Shown piece after piece: positions 4,959 through 57,260 of a stretch of DNA of 57,790 bases (positions within the stretch are counted from its first letter, which is position 1; every line of letters begins with the position of its first letter). The position numbers and the translations under genes were made by a program. The stretch is from Gammaproteobacteria bacterium (GTDB lineage Bacteria; Pseudomonadota; Gammaproteobacteria; SZUA-152), in the NCBI GenBank assembly GCA_024276955.1, contig JAJRWE010000181.1:1-57790 (forward strand), read 5' to 3'. Below the pieces are notes generated by a model. The model was not told the DNA's origin. It made no database searches and was given only the letters and a program-made list of their open reading frames with translations.

Positions 4959-5056
4959 TGCGTCCCTTTTTCGCTATTTTTGTCGTTGTTGTCATGATCG
5001 GTTCCGCGCTGACGGCGGTGGGACTGCTGTTGTTTCAGCTGGGGGTGTTTGGTTAA
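4958..5056 (+). CDS. Possible 32-aa hydrophobic micropeptide (MRPFFAIFVVVVMIGSALTAVGLLLFQLGVFG)
   Basis: Its ATG overlaps the upstream TAA (TAATG at 4956-4960). Single predicted TM helix. Below the ORF-track size cut-off. Confidence 0.35.
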   Translation: MRPFFAIFVVVVMIGSALTAVGLLLFQLGVFG

Positions 5057-5565
5057 TCCTGAACCGTTGCCAGTTGCTCGCCTGACGGCGGCTTTAGCAC
5101 CGGCAGGCAGCTGGACAGCGTCAACTGCGGGGGCTCGAAAGAGAAAGTGAAGTTACCGGCCTTGCGCAGCCCGCTGAGCCCCAGGATGTGCCGTGTACGG
5201 CCGGGAAATACGGCGGCCTCCACATCATGCAGCTCGCAGTTATCGCCCAGACGGATGACATCGAGGCGATACACGGCGACCCGCTTGCGCTGACCGTTGG
5301 CGAGGATACCGATGAGATCCCTGACGAAGCTGGCCCTGCCCTGTTCCTGCAGCATTGCCAGACTGTGTTCGTTGATGGTGTTGTAGCTGGAGCCCGTATC
5401 GACGAGAAAGTCGACCGCCCCGACCCCTGCAATCTCACCCTGCACATAAAAAGTCCTGGCACTCTTCTCCGTCATTGGCACAACGTGGCCTGCAGGCATG
5501 GCCGCAGAAGCGCCGCCCACAACAAGCAGCAACAGCCCATAAAGCAATCGCTTAACTGATATCAC
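5053..5565 (-). CDS. Secreted retropepsin-like (clan AA) aspartic protease
   Basis: 170-aa ORF with signal-like N-terminus and the active-site motif FLVDTGSS. GTG start preceded by GAGGGGA. Confidence 0.75.
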   Translation of the reverse strand: MISVKRLLYGLLLLVVGGASAAMPAGHVVPMTEKSARTFYVQGEIAGVGAVDFLVDTGSSYNTINEHSLAMLQEQGRASFVRDLIGILANGQRKRVAVYRLDVIRLGDNCELHDVEAAVFPGRTRHILGLSGLRKAGNFTFSFEPPQLTLSSCLPVLKPPSGEQLATVQD

Positions 5566-5680
5566 CGGTCATTCCCCTCTCTCGTTGTGTATGCCGCTGT
5601 ATGCAGAAAGGCGGCCTGCTTAAATCATAGTGGCAAGTCGGTGGATAATCTTGAGAGGCTGCTGAGCGCGGTTGGGGTGA

Positions 5681-5923: not shown

Positions 5924-7279
5924 TCAAGTATGCCGAAACAGCGCTGGCTCCAGCTGGTGGCGGTGCAGTAGCTTGTAAAAGTCGGTGCGGTTGCGCTGGG
6001 CCAGACGGGCGGCCTGGCAGACGTTGCCGCGGGTCATTTGCAGGATCTGTACGAGGTAGTCGCGTTCGAACTGGCTGACGGCCTCGCCCAGTGGCAGTAT
6101 CTCCCGGCCCTTGCCGCGCAGGGCACGCTGCACCAGGGCGGCGGAGATGACCGGGGTGGTGGTGAGGGCCGAGACCTGTTCGACGACATTGAGTAGTTGG
6201 CGGATGTTGCCCGGCCAGGGGGCGGCCATGAGCAGTTCCATGGCCTCGCGGGAGAAGGAGCGGGCCTGGCAGTTTTTGCTGCGTTGTTGCAGCTGGCCGA
6301 GGAAGTGGTTGGCGAGTAGCGGGATGTCTTCGCAACGCTCGGCCAGGGCGGGCAGCTCCAGCATGACGACGTTGAGTCGGTAGTAGAGGTCTTCGCGGAA
6401 TTCGCGTTCGTCGATGGCGGCCTCAAGGTCGCGGTGGGTGGCGGAGATGATGCGCACGTCCACCGGCAGCGCCTGGGTCATGCCCAGCGGTCGTACCTCC
6501 CCTTCTTGAAGTACGCGCAGCAGCTTGCTCTGAAATTCCAGCGGCATATCACCGATTTCATCGAGAAACAGGGTGCCGCCGTTGGCGGCTTCGAACAGGC
6601 CGGTGTGGTTGCGGTCGGCGCCGGTGAAGGCACCCTTGCGATGGCCGAACAGCTCTGACTCCAGCAGGGCCTCGGGGATGGCGGCGCAGTTGATGGCGAC
6701 GAAGGGGCCTTGGTGGCGCGGGCTGGCGGCGTGGATGGCCCGCGCCAAGCGTTCCTTACCGGTACCGCTTTCGCTCTGCACGAGGATGCTGACGTCTGTC
6801 TGTGCGACACGCCAGGCCTGTTTCAGCAGCTCGTCCATGCGCGGGCTGGCGGTGACGATCTCGCGTCGCCATGCCTGGTCTTCGTCGTCATTTCCGCTAT
6901 CGGTTTGCGGTCCGGCGTGCTGCAGGGCGGTGGCGATATTTTCCAGCAATTGCTGGCTGTCGAAGGGCTTGGTCAGGTAGCTGAACACGCCCTGGCGGGT
7001 GGCGTCCACGGCATCGGGGATGGTGCCGTGGGCCGTGAGGATGATCACCGGCAGCGAGGGGTAGCGGCTGTGCACTTCGTTGAACAGGGTGAGGCCGTCC
7101 ATGCCTTCCATGCGCAGGTCGGTGATGATGACCTGGGGCTGGAAGGTGGGCAGGCGGGCCAGGGCATGACGACCGCTGGCGGCTGCTGCCACGTCGAAAC
7201 CGGCGGCCTTGAGGCGCATGGACAGCAGCCGCAACAGGCTGGCGTCATCGTCAACCAGGAGTATCTTGCTTTGGCTCAT
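5924..7279 (-). CDS. glrR: Sigma-54-dependent response regulator, GlrR/QseF-like
   Basis: 451 aa. Receiver domain ([15 protein letters not shown]), AAA+ activator core with GAFTGA, C-terminal HTH. Near-colinear with E. coli GlrR as I remember it. Sits in a glrK-qseG-glrR gene order. Confidence 0.85.
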
Positions 7280-7883
7280 GGGCCTTTTCCCCCTCCTTGC
7301 CCGTTACTGGGTTTTCTACTGCGCGCTCCTTTGCGTTGATGTCCTGTTCGATGGACTTGAGTTGATCCAGCTGTGATTGCTGGGCCTTTACGCGCTGCCG
7401 CAGGGATGCTGTGGTGGCCTGCAGCTGCTTGAGTTTTTTTGTCAGCGCCTGTGCGTGCTGCCTTTCCTGGGCAAGGGCTTTTTCCAATGCCGCCTGTGCC
7501 GTCAGCAACCGCTGGCGTTCGGCCAGCTCGTCCGCCAGCTGCTGTGCCAGCCCTCGCTGTGGATGCCGCGCATTGGCGGGATCGGCGAGAAAACCGGCCA
7601 GCATCCTGGCGGCCTCCGTGTCGTCACGGAAGGGGACATCGGGTCTGCCGAGCAGCAGTGCCAGGCGCAGGCGGTTGCAGCTGTCGGCTGCTCCTCCGTT
7701 GGGTTGCAGGGCCTCACGCATTTCCTGCCCGGCGGTAGCGGACAGTCGGGAAGCGATGCTGTGGAATTCGAGTACATCGCCGCAATTTTCGGCCCCGGTC
7801 TGCGGCCTGCTGTCGAGTTGCAATGGCGCGCAGGCGCTCAGCAGTGATAGTGCAATAATCGCCCCGGCTTGCTGGCGGATCAT
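7251..7883 (-). CDS. Lipoprotein with coiled-coil C-terminus, QseG/YfhG-like by position
   Basis: Lipobox LLSAC. Gln/Leu-rich coiled coil (LKQLQATTASLRQRVKAQQSQLDQLKSIEQD) and an acidic/Pro tail, like E. coli QseG. Lies between the kinase and the regulator. Start chosen at ATG 7883 (alternative 7913). Overlaps the glrR start by 29 nt. Confidence 0.55.
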   Translation of the reverse strand: MIRQQAGAIIALSLLSACAPLQLDSRPQTGAENCGDVLEFHSIASRLSATAGQEMREALQPNGGAADSCNRLRLALLLGRPDVPFRDDTEAARMLAGFLADPANARHPQRGLAQQLADELAERQRLLTAQAALEKALAQERQHAQALTKKLKQLQATTASLRQRVKAQQSQLDQLKSIEQDINAKERAVENPVTGKEGEKAHEPKQDTPG

Positions 7884-7899: not shown

Positions 7900-9372
7900 T
7901 TATGCATTTGCATCGTGTTCGCCTGCCAGGGGCAGGGTAACGCACAGGTGCGCCCCTGCCTTGCTGTCCTGCGCCGTGATGTCGCCCCCGTGCAGGCGGG
8001 CATAGCGCTGGGCGATGGCTAGCCCCAGCCCGGTGCCTTTGACGTGGCTGCGCGGTGGCTGCCGGCCCTGAAAAAAGGGCTCGAAAATGCGTTGCCGCTC
8101 CGCGTCGGGAATACCGGGCCCCTCATCTGTGACATCGATACGGACCTGATCGTTCTCGATATGCAGGCTGAGCCGGACCTGTCCATTCTCCGGCGAGTAT
8201 TTGATGGCGTTGGATAACAGGTTGTCGAACAGGGTGCGTAACTGTTCGCGCTCGCCGCACAGGCTAACCGCTTGCAGCTCGCTGTGCACGGAAATCTTTC
8301 GTGCCTGTAGCGCCAGGCGGTGCTTGTTGATGATCTCTGGCAGCAGTGTATGCAGCTCGACGGTCTCCTGACGCAGCAGGCTACTCTGCGCCAGGGCGGC
8401 GTTGAAGTTCAGCAGGGCCTCCACCTGCGCCTGCAGTTGGAGGCTGCTTTCGCGCAGGATGTCGGCCACTTCCGTCTGTTCACTGTTGAGTGTGCCGACC
8501 ACCTCCTCGCGCAGCAATTCCACGCCCTCGCGGATGGCCGTCAGCGGTGTTTTCAGCTCGTGGGAGACGTGGTGCAAAAAGGCCTGTTTCTGTTCATCCA
8601 GTTCGGACAGCCGCCGGCGCAGCCAGTCGAGTTGCTCGCTGAGTTCACGGATATCCTGTGGGCCGCCAACGGCTACTGCCGTCGTCAATTCGCCAGCGCC
8701 GAGATGACGGATGGCCACCCCCAGACGGCGCAGCGGGCGGCTGATGAGAATGCTGAAGACCACTGCCAGGATCAGTGCCAGCGGAATCAGCCCCAGCGCC
8801 TGCCACAGCAACTGGCGCTGCACGTCCTCAACCTGACGGGTCATGGCGTTGCTCTCTTCAGCGATCATTTGCGTAACCTCGAAGGGAATCGGGCGCGCCA
8901 GGCGGGTCAGGTCGTGCTCTTCCGTCAGCTTTTTTGACAAGCCCGACGGCAGTTTTGCGGGCATTCCGGCCACCTCGTGAAGCTTTCGGTACAGGGCCTC
9001 TTCCTGCTGGCGTAATTGCGACAACCGCTGTGCCAGGCTCTTGGTCAGCGCCAGCTCTTCCAGCTGGGCCATGGCCTTGGCGAGCTGGCTGCGCTGATCC
9101 TCATAGCGTTGCAGCACGGCGGAGTCGCGCAGCACCAGGTACTGGCCGGTGCTGCGTTCCATATTCAACACCTGGGTCATGATGATGCGGCTGGCCTCGA
9201 CTGCCCGGGATGAGTCGCGAACGGCAAGTTGCATCTGCACCGAGAGCTTGTCGATGAGCACAAAGGTATTCACCAGCGCCGCCGCGAGAGGTAGTGCGGC
9301 GAGAAAGAAGCCGATCAGCGCCAGTTGGAAAATCGAGGTGGGCAGGGTGAGCCGCATGGTGTAATTCATCAC
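7900..9372 (-). CDS. glrK: Sensor histidine kinase, GlrK/QseE-like
   Basis: 490 aa. Two TM segments, HAMP, HisKA H-box FLHHVSHELKTPLTAI, HATPase C-terminus. GTG 9372 or ATG 9369 start. Confidence 0.8.
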   Translation of the reverse strand: MMNYTMRLTLPTSIFQLALIGFFLAALPLAAALVNTFVLIDKLSVQMQLAVRDSSRAVEASRIIMTQVLNMERSTGQYLVLRDSAVLQRYEDQRSQLAKAMAQLEELALTKSLAQRLSQLRQQEEALYRKLHEVAGMPAKLPSGLSKKLTEEHDLTRLARPIPFEVTQMIAEESNAMTRQVEDVQRQLLWQALGLIPLALILAVVFSILISRPLRRLGVAIRHLGAGELTTAVAVGGPQDIRELSEQLDWLRRRLSELDEQKQAFLHHVSHELKTPLTAIREGVELLREEVVGTLNSEQTEVADILRESSLQLQAQVEALLNFNAALAQSSLLRQETVELHTLLPEIINKHRLALQARKISVHSELQAVSLCGEREQLRTLFDNLLSNAIKYSPENGQVRLSLHIENDQVRIDVTDEGPGIPDAERQRIFEPFFQGRQPPRSHVKGTGLGLAIAQRYARLHGGDITAQDSKAGAHLCVTLPLAGEHDANA

Positions 9373-9381
9373 CGGTTACTA

Positions 9382-9646
9382 GTACATCGTCAAGGCTATT
9401 TTGACGGGTTCAGTTGAACTGTCAGTGCTCGTGGCAAGGCACGTCTCGCCGCAAATGGCCATAGTCCTTTGCAAGAGGCGTAACGCTGCCATGAGTGCTG
9501 ACAGTTCAACCCTTCGGGCGATACCGTGGCGTTCCGCCACGGCGTTACAGCTTTTGACAAGGACTACGGCCATTGCCTGCAAGCTGTGCCTTGTTGCGAA
9601 ACGCCACGGTAACGCTGAACCCGTCAAAATAGCCTTGACGGTGTAC
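9382..9646. repeat. 265-bp nested foldback (MITE-like) element
   Basis: 32-nt terminal arms GTACATCGTCAAGGCTATTTTGACGGGTTCAG (9382-9413) and the inverted copy (9615-9646), 31/32 complementary. The interior halves are also inverted copies of each other. ORF-track ORFs inside it look spurious. Confidence 0.85.
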
Positions 9647-9914
9647 TCGGCAAGCTGGCTGGAGAGGCAGTGGAGTATGGCGAAATCAGAGGGTCAAGAA
9701 TGATACTCAAAAAAATAGCCCTAAAAAATCCCATCCGTGGAATCTTATTAGAGCCGAAGGCATAAATCAGAATATTTTGCCCTCTTAACGCGCGCTGCCA
9801 GTGGAGTGGCGAGCGATCGGCGCATCCCTGCGCCGTGATGGGCCCCTACTCTCTGAGAGAGAGGAAGAGTGGAATGAGTAGAGGCCGATCAACCTTTGCC
9901 GGTCAGGCAGTGGA

Positions 9915-10166
9915 TTAATTCCCGCTTTTTTCGTCCTTCGGCATGACCAGTTCAAACCTGGCAAATTCAACCTCGTCCAGCACGCCGTCTGTATTGAGGT
10001 CATAGGTGTCCCACTGTTCATTCAGCCCCGGCAGTGCGGCGGCTTCTTCCTTGCTGATGGAACCGCTTTGGTCGGTATCGGCTGTCTTGAAGGTGTCACC
10101 GGCAAAGGCCGTGCCGCTGGCCAGGGTGAAGGTGAAGAGTGCTGCAAATAGTAGTTTCTGATTCAT
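9915..10166 (-). CDS. Secreted EF-hand calcium-binding protein
   Basis: 83 aa. Signal peptide ..GTAFA, two canonical EF loops DTDQSGSISKEE and DLNTDGVLDEVE. RBS GAGGA. Confidence 0.85.
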   Translation of the reverse strand: MNQKLLFAALFTFTLASGTAFAGDTFKTADTDQSGSISKEEAAALPGLNEQWDTYDLNTDGVLDEVEFARFELVMPKDEKSGN

Positions 10167-10288
10167 GAAAGCTATCCTCTGTTAGGTCTTCGTTAGGCGT
10201 CCTTGGCAGACGTCCCTGTGTTAGCAATGCTGCTTGCGCTGAAGCTTGCCTCGATCCGATCTGTGGCATGCAACGACTACATGGCTAT

Positions 10289-10304
10289 TGCATGTCGCGT
10301 GCCA
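10289..10304 (-). promoter_or_regulatory. Sigma-54 (-24/-12) promoter
   Basis: Minus strand reads TGGCACGCGACATGCA, compared with consensus TGGCACG-N4-TTGCA. GG and GC are at exact spacing, with one mismatch. About 120 nt upstream of the EF-hand start codon. Confidence 0.8.
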
Positions 10305-10377
10305 AAATATTTAATTACTGCTTATTCAGGGAGTTAGATTATTTTGACGGGGTTTGGACGGGCTGTTGGTGGTGGTG

Positions 10378-10401
10378 CCTGTCGCCGTTTGGAGACAGGT
10401 G
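10378..10401. promoter_or_regulatory. Enhancer site 1, CCTGTCGC-N8-GACAGGTG (contains TGTC-N10-GACA)
   Basis: Read directly: CCTGTCGCcgtttggaGACAGGTG. About 85 bp upstream of the -24 element. Confidence 0.75.
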
Positions 10402-10444
10402 AAAACCCGGAGGGAGATAACTGATTGAAATACCGCTAGAATCA

Positions 10445-10468
10445 CCTGTCGCAAGATGGCGACAGGTG
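10445..10468. promoter_or_regulatory. Enhancer site 2, CCTGTCGC-N8-GACAGGTG (contains TGTC-N10-GACA)
   Basis: Read directly: (CA)CCTGTCGCaagatggcGACAGGTG. Both 8-bp arms are identical to site 1. The centres are 67 bp apart. Confidence 0.75.
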
Positions 10469-23394: not shown

Positions 23395-23907
23395 TTATCT
23401 GGATTTTCTTTTGCAAAATCCTAAGCCGACAAGCCCGAGTGTAAACAGTGCAAGAACTCCGGGTGCAGGAACTGGAGTCACGCAGGCAGGTTGTCCAGGA
23501 CCGCCGCAGGTTCCAAATGTGATACTGCCCATGGTTGATGAGACAGCCGCATAGTTCCAGGCATTAATATTGGATCCATGGTAAGCCACGGGCGTTAACA
23601 TTTGCCCATTGCCCTGTAAGCCAGTGGCAACAAAACCCGTTGTGGAATTGTCATTGATGCATTTTGTAGTTCCATCTGCTCGACAAGTGTCCAATCCGCT
23701 AATAAAGAGCGGCGAGGCGGAATCGACTACTGCCTGAGAAGTGGGATAACTGCCGAAAAAACCACTGAATGGATTGATATTAATGCCAGCGTTAATCTCA
23801 TTGATTCCTGATTGAAATGCATTGTGATCGGTACCTAGCACCAGGCCGCCACCACGTAAACCAAGCTGGGTCGCATAATTTTGGATCCATGAGTCTTCAG
23901 GCGACAT
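23395..23907 (-). CDS. PEP-CTERM-anchored protein, apparently 5'-truncated
   Basis: C-terminus VPAPGVLALFTLGLVGLGFCKRKSR, i.e. PEP-like motif + TM + basic tail. No signal peptide at the N-terminus, and an in-frame TGA lies just upstream of the ATG. Confidence 0.65.
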   Translation of the reverse strand: MSPEDSWIQNYATQLGLRGGGLVLGTDHNAFQSGINEINAGININPFSGFFGSYPTSQAVVDSASPLFISGLDTCRADGTTKCINDNSTTGFVATGLQGNGQMLTPVAYHGSNINAWNYAAVSSTMGSITFGTCGGPGQPACVTPVPAPGVLALFTLGLVGLGFCKRKSR

Positions 23908-24276
23908 ACCGTTTGCGTTTCATATAATGAATTCAAATACGGCTTTTTCGGTGCAGTTGAATGCTAGGCGAGCCGGCAAAGCTTGTTTGGTCTGCGTGCC
24001 ACGATGAGTTATGCAACAAACATGCCATTGGGAGCGCGTGACAGTTAACGCATTGATTGTAATGGCTTTGGTTGTCCTGTGGGATTTGATAACACCCCGT
24101 CCTGGTGCAGGAGTGTAAAAGTATCCGACATGTAGAATCTATGTAGAGGAATGGTAAGTATTACGGAGAGCAATAAAGGATTGTTGCTGTGGTGCGTCAC
24201 ATCCTCGATTTTCAAGCCGGCATTGGTGCGCAGTCGGGTGTTTAATGCTGTCAGGTATTTGATCCTGAGCGACTAA

Positions 24277-56716: not shown

Positions 56717-57260
56717 GTGCGACGCAAGCGTAGCGTAGTTTGCGTCAGAACGAGCGCCTTGTGTACGCCTAGCATGGGCATGAACTAATGAGGTGAAAGT
56801 CCTCTGTAGGAAGATCACCATCCTTAGCGATTTATATCGTTATTAGATGATAACTACTAGCGAATGGCAAGGGCCAACCCACGAGGGCGGTCTGAAGGAA
56901 GCCGGATGCACCAACAGTAGACCCCATGAGGGGAACCTGCGAGCTGATGAACAAGAACATCATATGAGGCGTAGGCTGGAGGCGAGATGGCAGAGCCTGC
57001 CCCACGAAGTGCTTTGGGTACAAGACATCGAAGCCATGTGATCTAGCGGCCACCGTAAATGATGCAAAAGTGCAGTGAAAGTGCACGTCCTTATCTGGGA
57101 AGATCTGCTTAACAAGCGATCGGTAGATAACCAGTGAGGCCACTGGTCGATCAAGCCTTGGCATGCAGGGTTAATCGCCCTGCATGAGCGAATCTGATGA
57201 AAACCGATAGCGCCAGCAGGGGCAACTCTGTGGGTGATTAAACAGAAGACAGATAATTGC
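56717..57260 (+). mobile_element. Group II intron 5' RNA segment (domain I-III-like)
   Basis: Begins GTGCGAC (intron 5' consensus GUGYG). GC-balanced, stem-rich, non-coding in all frames. Contains GGTGAAAGTCC, GTGAAAGTGCACG and similar intron-like strings. Identification is by resemblance only. Confidence 0.45.

Follow-up and report, generated by a model that had tools for sequence, protein, structure and literature searches.

A predicted GlrR-dependent sigma-54 promoter upstream of glrK with a putatively secreted EF-hand protein as its probable output

In Enterobacterales, the GlrK(QseE)-QseG-GlrR(QseF) system controls the sigma-54 promoters of glmY and glmZ (PMC3045617, PMC6075780). Which output does this system have at a locus that carries its operon and no recognizable GlmY gene? 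The question is raised by contig JAJRWE010000181.1 of Gammaproteobacteria bacterium (assembly GCA_024276955.1), whose whole stretch of 57,790 nucleotides is referred to here as the window. Upstream of the glrK-qseG-glrR operon of this window, two enhancer-type palindromes and a -24/-12 element, together termed the module, precede a small gene for a putatively secreted EF-hand protein. Comparison of these elements across related loci indicates that a GlrR (QseF)-type activator probably drives this sigma-54 promoter, with the EF-hand protein as its product.

Promoter module and EF-hand gene

On the minus strand, positions 10305..10288 read TTGGCACGCGACATGCAA, with the GG at 10303-10302 and the GC at 10291-10290 spaced 10 nt apart. 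The element departs from TGGCAC-N5-TTGCA at one position, and the sigma-54 (-24/-12) promoter predicted from it (TGGCACGCGACATGCA, 10289..10304, minus strand) would start transcription near 10278. Further upstream, both enhancer sites read CCTGTCGC-N8-GACAGGTG (10378-10401 and 10445-10468), with the same arms and with centres that are 67 bp apart and lie ~100 and ~167 bp ahead of the -24 element. The proximal upstream activating sequence, UAS2 (CACCTGTCTCCAAACGGCGACAGGC, 10376..10401, minus strand; core TGTC-N10-GACA at 10380-10397), begins 93 bp upstream of the promoter motif. The distal one, UAS1 (10443..10468, minus strand; core TGTC-N10-GACA at 10447-10464), begins 160 bp upstream and forms a perfect 10+10 palindrome, CACCTGTCGC-N6-GCGACAGGTG. 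Two conserved IHF-like sites are placed either side of UAS2. Site 1 (TTTCAATCAGTTA, 10418..10430, minus strand; one mismatch to WATCAANNNNTTR) lies between UAS1 and UAS2, and most of its columns are invariant among 8 relatives, while site 2 (ATTCAGGGAGTTA, 10324..10336, plus strand; one mismatch to WATCARNNNNTTR) is part of the AT-rich tract that separates UAS2 from the promoter. On the minus strand, no sigma-70 promoter was detected that overlaps this one in the way known from glmY of E. coli.

This layout resembles that of the enterobacterial system. Applied to enterobacterial loci, the same scan returned three sites at ~-200, -165, and -100 from the promoter motif, which is the published architecture, and GlmY (Rfam) starts 26-27 nt after the first base of the promoter motif in these control loci. 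The window sites at -93 and -160 match in position the enterobacterial sites ABS3 (-94 to -107) and ABS2 (-157 to -170). Both ABS2 and ABS3 are reported to be essential at E. coli glmY, where IHF-like sequences flank ABS3 (PMC3045617). Moreover, the combination is rare by chance: TGTC-N10-GACA matches twice in the 57.8-kb window, both matches being the UAS pair, while shuffles average 0.59 per window, and sites followed by a promoter 60-260 bp downstream occur as one such combination. Among the real related loci, 53 modules were counted under a loose rule and 36 under a strict rule, compared with 0 in 631 kb of reversed-sequence decoys.

The gene behind this promoter (9915..10166, minus strand) encodes 83 residues with Ca2+ loops at residues 30-41 and 56-67. 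These canonical 12-residue loops, DTDQSGSISKEE and DLNTDGVLDEVE, fit the pattern D-x-[DNS]-x-[DNS]-G-x-[ILV]-x-x-x-E, and among the 799 stop-to-stop segments of the window, none but this open reading frame (ORF) carries canonical EF-hand loops. It matches the Pfam families EF-hand_1 and EF-hand_5, the former at 33 bits against a cut-off of 25.4. Because substitutions relative to three relatives fall 11/9/45 by codon position, the ORF is read as a real gene. Within a diverse alignment, D30, G35, E41, and D56 are invariant. AlphaFold2 returned a helix-loop-strand-helix pair with a block-mean predicted local distance difference test score (pLDDT) of 75-91 across most of the mature part, and the top Foldseek matches are EF-hand pairs, for example calmodulin lobes, calcineurin B, and CRACR2a. 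The N-terminus, as read from the sequence, resembles a signal peptide, with K4, a hydrophobic core, and ...GTAFA|GD, and the protein is presumed to be periplasmic and to bind Ca2+. Ahead of the gene, a predicted 5' untranslated region (5'UTR) of ~112 nt (10167..10278, minus strand) carries the Shine-Dalgarno sequence AGAGGA 8 nt before the ATG. A structured 5'UTR or riboswitch was considered and rejected, the fold of this region being no more stable than that of shuffles (z 0.1).

Much of this had been described in the initial annotation, which named the promoter at 10288-10305 with its one mismatch, the pair of same-armed sites, the AT-rich tract, the secreted 83-aa protein with two EF-hand loops, and the foldback followed by glrK-qseG-glrR. 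All of these elements are present at the positions given there. In addition, the tract holds the conserved IHF-like site ATTCAGGGAGTTA, and the protein is backed by Pfam, codon-position, and model evidence.

Conservation of the module and the adjoining operon

A genome scan with the window kinase yielded 80 related loci, which range from uncultured gammaproteobacteria (Chromatiales/Ectothiorhodospiraceae-like metagenome-assembled genomes, MAGs) and Thiobacillus, Thauera, and Hahella to Enterobacter and Pantoea. By tblastn, 16 of the 80 hold a clear EF-hand homologue (43-95% identity), and one further locus, L040, gave a weak match. TGTC-N10-GACA-type sites and a -24/-12 element precede the EF-hand gene in all 16, the element lying 92-96 bp after the proximal site. 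The two sites are 66-70 bp apart, with zero or one mismatch each, in 14 of these loci; the exceptions are L015, with one site only, and L019, where the sites are ~226 bp apart. Conservation of the motif together with the EF-hand gene at glrK homologues, which the initial annotation had suggested as a check, is borne out in these 16 loci.

The position of the gene relative to the operon varies. It lies upstream of glrK and co-directional in the window, L001-L005, and L011-L013, upstream and divergent in L014-L017 and L019 and likewise divergent in L081, and downstream of glrR in L008-L010 and the Thiobacillus loci. In all three arrangements, the module accompanies the EF-hand gene and stays within ~1 kb of the glrKGR operon. 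A whole-locus scan further found the module with an EF-hand pair in distant lineages, namely Thiobacillus (L043, L044, L047, L049, L052, L059), Azoarcus (L060), and a gammaproteobacterial MAG (L036), a set in which the EF-hand pair is sometimes fused to a BON domain. Counted with a family hidden Markov model (HMM) over loci flanked by 1 kb or more on both sides, an EF-hand ORF is present in 30 of 43 non-enterobacterial loci versus 0 of 10 enterobacterial ones.

The search was also run in reverse, with small two-EF-hand homologues collected by protein search and their genomic context then looked up. All six adjoin an operon of kinase, small protein, and sigma-54 regulator; for P0061 (L084), the contig end shows just the C-terminus of the regulator. 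Sites and promoter were found by the TGTC pattern in five of the six, and the sixth, from Pseudoalteromonas, has variant TGTTGC sites. Operon linkage as a property of any EF-hand protein was rejected, two four-EF-hand proteins (150-160 aa) being found in unrelated contexts.

The Pseudoalteromonas holothuriae locus (L082, 5700-5900) holds three tandem EF-hand genes divergent from the operon. Its sites read TGTTGC-N6-GCAACA and are ~70 bp apart, with a promoter-like element TGGCAT-N5-TTGGA ~91 bp downstream, and the recognition helix of its regulator is RNRSDFYKLI in place of RNRT(D/E)FYKLL. The change of sites and helix in one locus is consistent with the sites being read by the adjacent regulator. 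The proposal of the initial annotation that the local GlrR-like activator would control the window promoter draws support from both conservation and synteny.

The adjoining operon encodes, all on the minus strand, a glrK/qseE-like sensor histidine kinase (7900..9372; HAMP, HisKA, HATPase_c), a qseG-like lipoprotein (7251..7883; probable start MIRQQAG..., lipobox LLSAC), which has no Pfam or NCBIfam match, and a glrR/qseF-like sigma-54 enhancer-binding response regulator (5924..7279; REC, AAA+, HTH_8). The best NCBIfam model for the regulator is GlrR at 627.7 bits, followed by NtrC at 442. Over residues 4-449, it shares 59-60% identity with the GlrR proteins of Enterobacter and Pantoea, and it has the recognition helix RNRT(D/E)FYKLL in common with enterobacterial GlrR. 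In all related loci holding both genes, the kinase is followed by a 500-750 bp gap and the regulator, and a lipoprotein ORF fills this gap in nearly all 80 loci, including those of Enterobacter and Pantoea. Judged by sequence, the window operon is a probable QseEGF/GlrKGR orthologue.

The module also stands before other genes. Thiobacillus-type loci (L043, L053, L054, L057, L059, L061, L085, L086) have a second module ~100-150 bp after glrR, which precedes a gene for a 55-aa DUF1328 (YtjA-like) membrane peptide; behind this gene come EF-hand and EF-hand-BON genes that have a module of their own. Further module-linked genes encode a BON protein (L072), PRC-barrel proteins (L058, L076), and bactofilins (L065, L066, L075). 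The BON, EF-hand-BON, DUF1328, PRC-barrel, and bactofilin genes fit the envelope-homeostasis theme of QseEF in E. coli.

Structured RNA and foldback behind the EF-hand gene

The module probably has more than a protein as its output. Starting ~24 nt past the stop codon of the EF-hand ORF, a structured RNA of 183 nt and five hairpins (9709..9891, minus strand) occupies the predicted 3'UTR. Identity to six relatives is 0.93-0.96 for this RNA, 0.74-0.93 for the EF-hand ORF, and 0.33-0.56 for the DNA upstream of the enhancer, so that no other part of the unit is as conserved as the RNA. Its fold has -74.2 kcal/mol (z -4.3 versus shuffles), and RNAalifold on seven close sequences gave 54 pairs, with compensatory changes in 7. 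A ten-sequence alignment, whose covariation figures are to be read with the caveat that it was fitted to the covariance model, shows compensatory changes in 18 of 54 pairs with 98.3% of cells paired, compared with 41-45% of cells paired and 2-5 covarying pairs in a control with the partners slid. Hairpin 1 presents a 24-nt CU-rich loop, AUUCCACUCUUCCUCUCUCUCAGA, which is near-invariant (one substitution, in L013) on a stem that covaries. The loops of hairpins 2 and 5, CAGGGAUG and CACGGAUG, both carry GGAUG, and hairpin 5 (~9755-9717) together with a U7 run forms an intrinsic terminator.

The covariance model also matches L005 (44.5 bits) and L011 (41.6 bits). In L008-L010, whose EF-hand gene lies downstream of glrR, weak full-length matches directly follow its stop codon, and the 3'UTRs of more distant, divergently arranged homologues repeatedly show GGA-loop hairpins with a terminator behind them. 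An exact-loop scan of metagenome contigs found just four more full copies, all from the same clade and each directly after an EF-hand gene; glrK lies downstream in three of them, and the fourth contig ends earlier. Because the copies follow the EF-hand gene in varied arrangements and on metagenome contigs, the RNA is read as part of the EF-hand transcript. It has conserved structure, ends in the mRNA's own terminator, and shows no detected promoter of its own, which matches the layout of CpxQ-type sRNAs (small RNAs) from 3'UTRs. On this evidence, the RNA is a candidate 3'UTR-derived regulatory sRNA.

The RNA occupies the position that glmY has in enterics. Rfam searches detected neither GlmY nor GlmZ in the window, nor any other known RNA downstream of the promoter, at the gathering score or at E up to 10; as a control, GlmY was recovered at 107-140 bits in four enterobacterial loci, and it was not found in the eight other loci scanned. 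Assignment to the Csr/Rsm sRNAs was rejected, the RsmW match reaching 20.9 bits (E 0.59) where the gathering score is 52; the RNA has three GGA motifs, two of which lie in hairpin loops. A scan for targets of the CU-rich loop within the window was uninformative, the best non-self matches being generic GA-rich stretches. One of the five best complements in the window, at 5565-5585 (minus strand, -23.9 kcal/mol), is the ribosome-binding region of the gene for a retropepsin-like aspartyl protease (5565..5053) that closely follows glrR; this is a Shine-Dalgarno sequence of the generic GA-rich kind and not convincing.

Between the terminator and glrK lies a 267-bp complex foldback (9381..9647) with 33-nt terminal inverted repeats that are 97% complementary and with nested inner repeats. 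No close relative has it, and no other copy was found in the window or in 88 loci. Because it has no counterpart in any relative and a single copy in the window, the foldback is read as an insertion, which may be of the MITE (miniature inverted-repeat transposable element) kind, and a place for it in the regulatory unit was rejected on the same observations. Inside it, a sigma-70-like match was noted at 9425..9398.

Proposed circuit, rival readings, and known systems

In the proposed circuit, the membrane kinase GlrK, aided by the QseG-like lipoprotein, would phosphorylate GlrR, and phospho-GlrR would bind both TGTC-N10-GACA palindromes. DNA bending at the two IHF-like sites would bring GlrR to the sigma-54 RNA polymerase on TGGCAC-N5-ATGCA, and ATP hydrolysis would open the promoter near 10278. 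The predicted RpoN-dependent transcript of ~570 nt would encode the 83-aa precursor and end in the conserved five-hairpin region of 183 nt with its intrinsic terminator. Exported by Sec and cut after AFA, the precursor would yield a periplasmic protein of ~61 aa that has one EF-hand pair and presumably binds Ca2+. Our best guess for the role of this protein is an output in envelope or divalent-cation homeostasis. Because its linkage to the operon is tight and rearrangement-proof, the protein may modulate the sensor and feed back on GlrK-QseG, by analogy with ZraP in ZraP-ZraSR and CpxP in CpxP-CpxAR.

Several observations weigh against this assignment. The source organism is an uncultured gammaproteobacterium, and the assignment is a prediction from sequence comparison. 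Promoter-type matches alone are not unusual (2 in the window versus ~3 expected), and several orthologous loci have weaker -12 elements with 2-3 mismatches. Among the well-covered non-enterobacterial loci, 13 of 43 have no EF-hand ORF nearby. The loci were first found through GlrK, a bias that the small reverse test offsets only partly. Further, the 627.7 bits of the regulator fall below the NCBIfam equivalog cut-off of 763 for GlrR, and the window kinase matches no GlrK-specific model.

The conserved RNA raises the alternative of a dual-function transcript, in which the same promoter serves a 3' RNA that is an equal or more important output than the protein, either as a base-pairing sRNA acting through the CU-rich loop or as a CsrA/RsmA-binding RNA acting through the GGAUG loops. 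Such a transcript would parallel CpxQ from the cpxP 3'UTR and would stand where enterics have glmY. In its favour, the identity of the RNA exceeds that of the ORF, the fold scores z -4.3, 18 of 54 pairs are compensated, and the CU-rich loop stays near-invariant while its stem covaries. The matches in L005 and L011, the weak ones after the EF-hand gene downstream of glrR, the four metagenome copies directly after an EF-hand gene, and the GGA-loop hairpins in the 3'UTRs of distant homologues all argue in the same direction. However, the RNA family is narrow and clear only where GlrK identity is at least ~73%, whereas ORF and module are far wider. No own promoter was found, the RsmW match is sub-threshold with just three GGA motifs, similarity to GlmY or GlmZ is not detectable, and the target scan within the window is uninformative; the structure might alternatively act in mRNA stability or termination. 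We regard this alternative as possible, though rather unlikely. The initial annotation had named the secreted EF-hand protein, not GlmY, as the output: the absence of GlmY by Rfam and the tie between module and EF-hand gene uphold this, but the protein is probably not the sole output, the 183-nt RNA having been missed.

It had also allowed for read-through autoregulation, and a stronger version would hold that the promoter serves mainly to amplify glrK-qseG-glrR, with the EF-hand gene as a passenger. In favour, the EF-hand gene is upstream of glrK and on the same strand in the clade of the window, and glmY-qseEGF has been reported as a single operon in Proteus (PMC8745638). Against this, the unit is terminated by a long G+C-rich hairpin and U7 that are invariant in relatives, and in the window the 267-bp foldback separates it further from glrK. 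Moreover, the gene is divergent in L014-L017, L019, and L081 and downstream of glrR in L008-L010 and Thiobacillus; because read-through is impossible in these arrangements, read-through autoregulation is not conserved. As a designed feature it is unlikely, and as the main purpose of the promoter improbable. Several NtrC-family activators use TGT-N12-ACA-like palindromes, and another sigma-54 activator might use the sites, or the pair might have arisen by chance. Yet the sites fit the experimentally defined GlrR consensus (PMC3045617), the module moves with the EF-hand gene through three arrangements while staying within ~1 kb of glrKGR, sites and recognition helix both change in the same Pseudoalteromonas locus, and decoys gave 0 modules. 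Both variants are highly improbable next to control by a GlrR-type activator with an EF-hand product.

Set against known systems, the proposed circuit has most in common with that of glmY/glmZ. Common to both are the operon of kinase, lipoprotein, and sigma-54 regulator, the recognition helix, a target beside the operon, TGTC-N10-GACA sites ~93 and ~160 bp upstream of the -24/-12 element, and IHF-like sites flanking the proximal site. In contrast, the target in the window is an EF-hand protein gene with a structured 3'UTR rather than a GlmY/GlmZ sRNA, two sites stand in place of three, and no overlapping sigma-70 promoter was detected in the window. Moreover, the glmY/glmZ system is described in the literature as enterobacterial, whereas the window and many of its relatives are not.

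ZraP-ZraSR of E. coli is a sigma-54 two-component system whose main target is the adjacent gene for a small periplasmic metal-binding protein; zraP is driven from activator palindromes in the intergenic region, and ZraP feeds back on the sensor. It differs in that kinase and regulator belong to another family and that ZraP is a zinc-binding chaperone of the CpxP fold without an EF-hand. For CpxAR, the top target is the neighbouring cpxP, which encodes a small accessory protein of the periplasm and whose 3'UTR yields the terminator-ending sRNA CpxQ. This system shares with the window an envelope-stress two-component target with a conserved terminator-ending 3'UTR RNA, which in the window is a candidate only, but it uses a sigma-70 promoter and an OmpR-family regulator. 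Among published stress circuits with a periplasmic EF-hand protein, the nearest analogue is CaBP-SigV of Caulobacter (PMC13171946), in which a Sec-exported periplasmic EF-hand protein is likewise wired to an adjacent envelope/stress regulator. In contrast to the window protein, CaBP has three EF-hands in 133 aa, and its partner is an extracytoplasmic function (ECF) sigma factor in a circuit that involves neither sigma-54 nor an enhancer-binding protein (PMC13171946). Among the papers that could be searched, none combines QseF or GlrR with an EF-hand protein, in line with the initial annotation, which had called the output undescribed. Sensor, activator, binding site, and promoter class are known, while the EF-hand output is different and previously undescribed.

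This output appears to be widespread and is possibly ancestral. A broader scenario would make a periplasmic Ca2+-binding EF-hand protein the ancestral QseE-QseG-QseF output of beta- and gammaproteobacteria, acting as co-sensor or feedback partner of GlrK-QseG and often accompanied by BON and DUF1328 envelope proteins; in the lineage of the window, the same transcript would also supply a GlrR-dependent 3'UTR sRNA, and Enterobacterales would have swapped the unit for glmY at the same position upstream of glrK. Taken as a whole, this scenario is speculative and unlikely. If it were true, the QseE stimulus may relate to divalent-cation or envelope status, and the wiring of glmY would go back to an older output of protein plus RNA. 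Work on QseE/QseF (GlrK/GlrR) has treated it as a system of enterobacterial virulence and envelope functions, with glmY, glmZ, and rpoE as known direct targets and a stimulus still described as unknown (PMC6075780). The same architecture of operon, sites, and promoter is wide outside Enterobacterales, which suggests what the original target may have been and hints at sensing of Ca2+ or envelope state. In addition, the conserved 3' RNA contributes a candidate for a new sRNA where enteric genomes carry glmY. The predictions lend themselves to direct testing in culturable bacteria (Thiobacillus denitrificans, T. thioparus, Pseudoalteromonas holothuriae, Hahella) and, through transfer of a reporter, even in E. 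coli.

Elsewhere in the window, a second sigma-54-like motif, TGGCATGTTTGTTGCA (24012-24027, minus strand), lies ~105 nt upstream of a 170-aa ORF (23907..23395, minus strand) and has no TGTC-N10-GACA near it; the encoded protein carries a C-terminal PEP-CTERM-like sorting signal, VPAPGVLALFTLGLVGLGFCKRKSR. A group II intron D1-D4-3 match (Rfam RF02001, 71.4 bits) is located at 56875-57089 on the plus strand.

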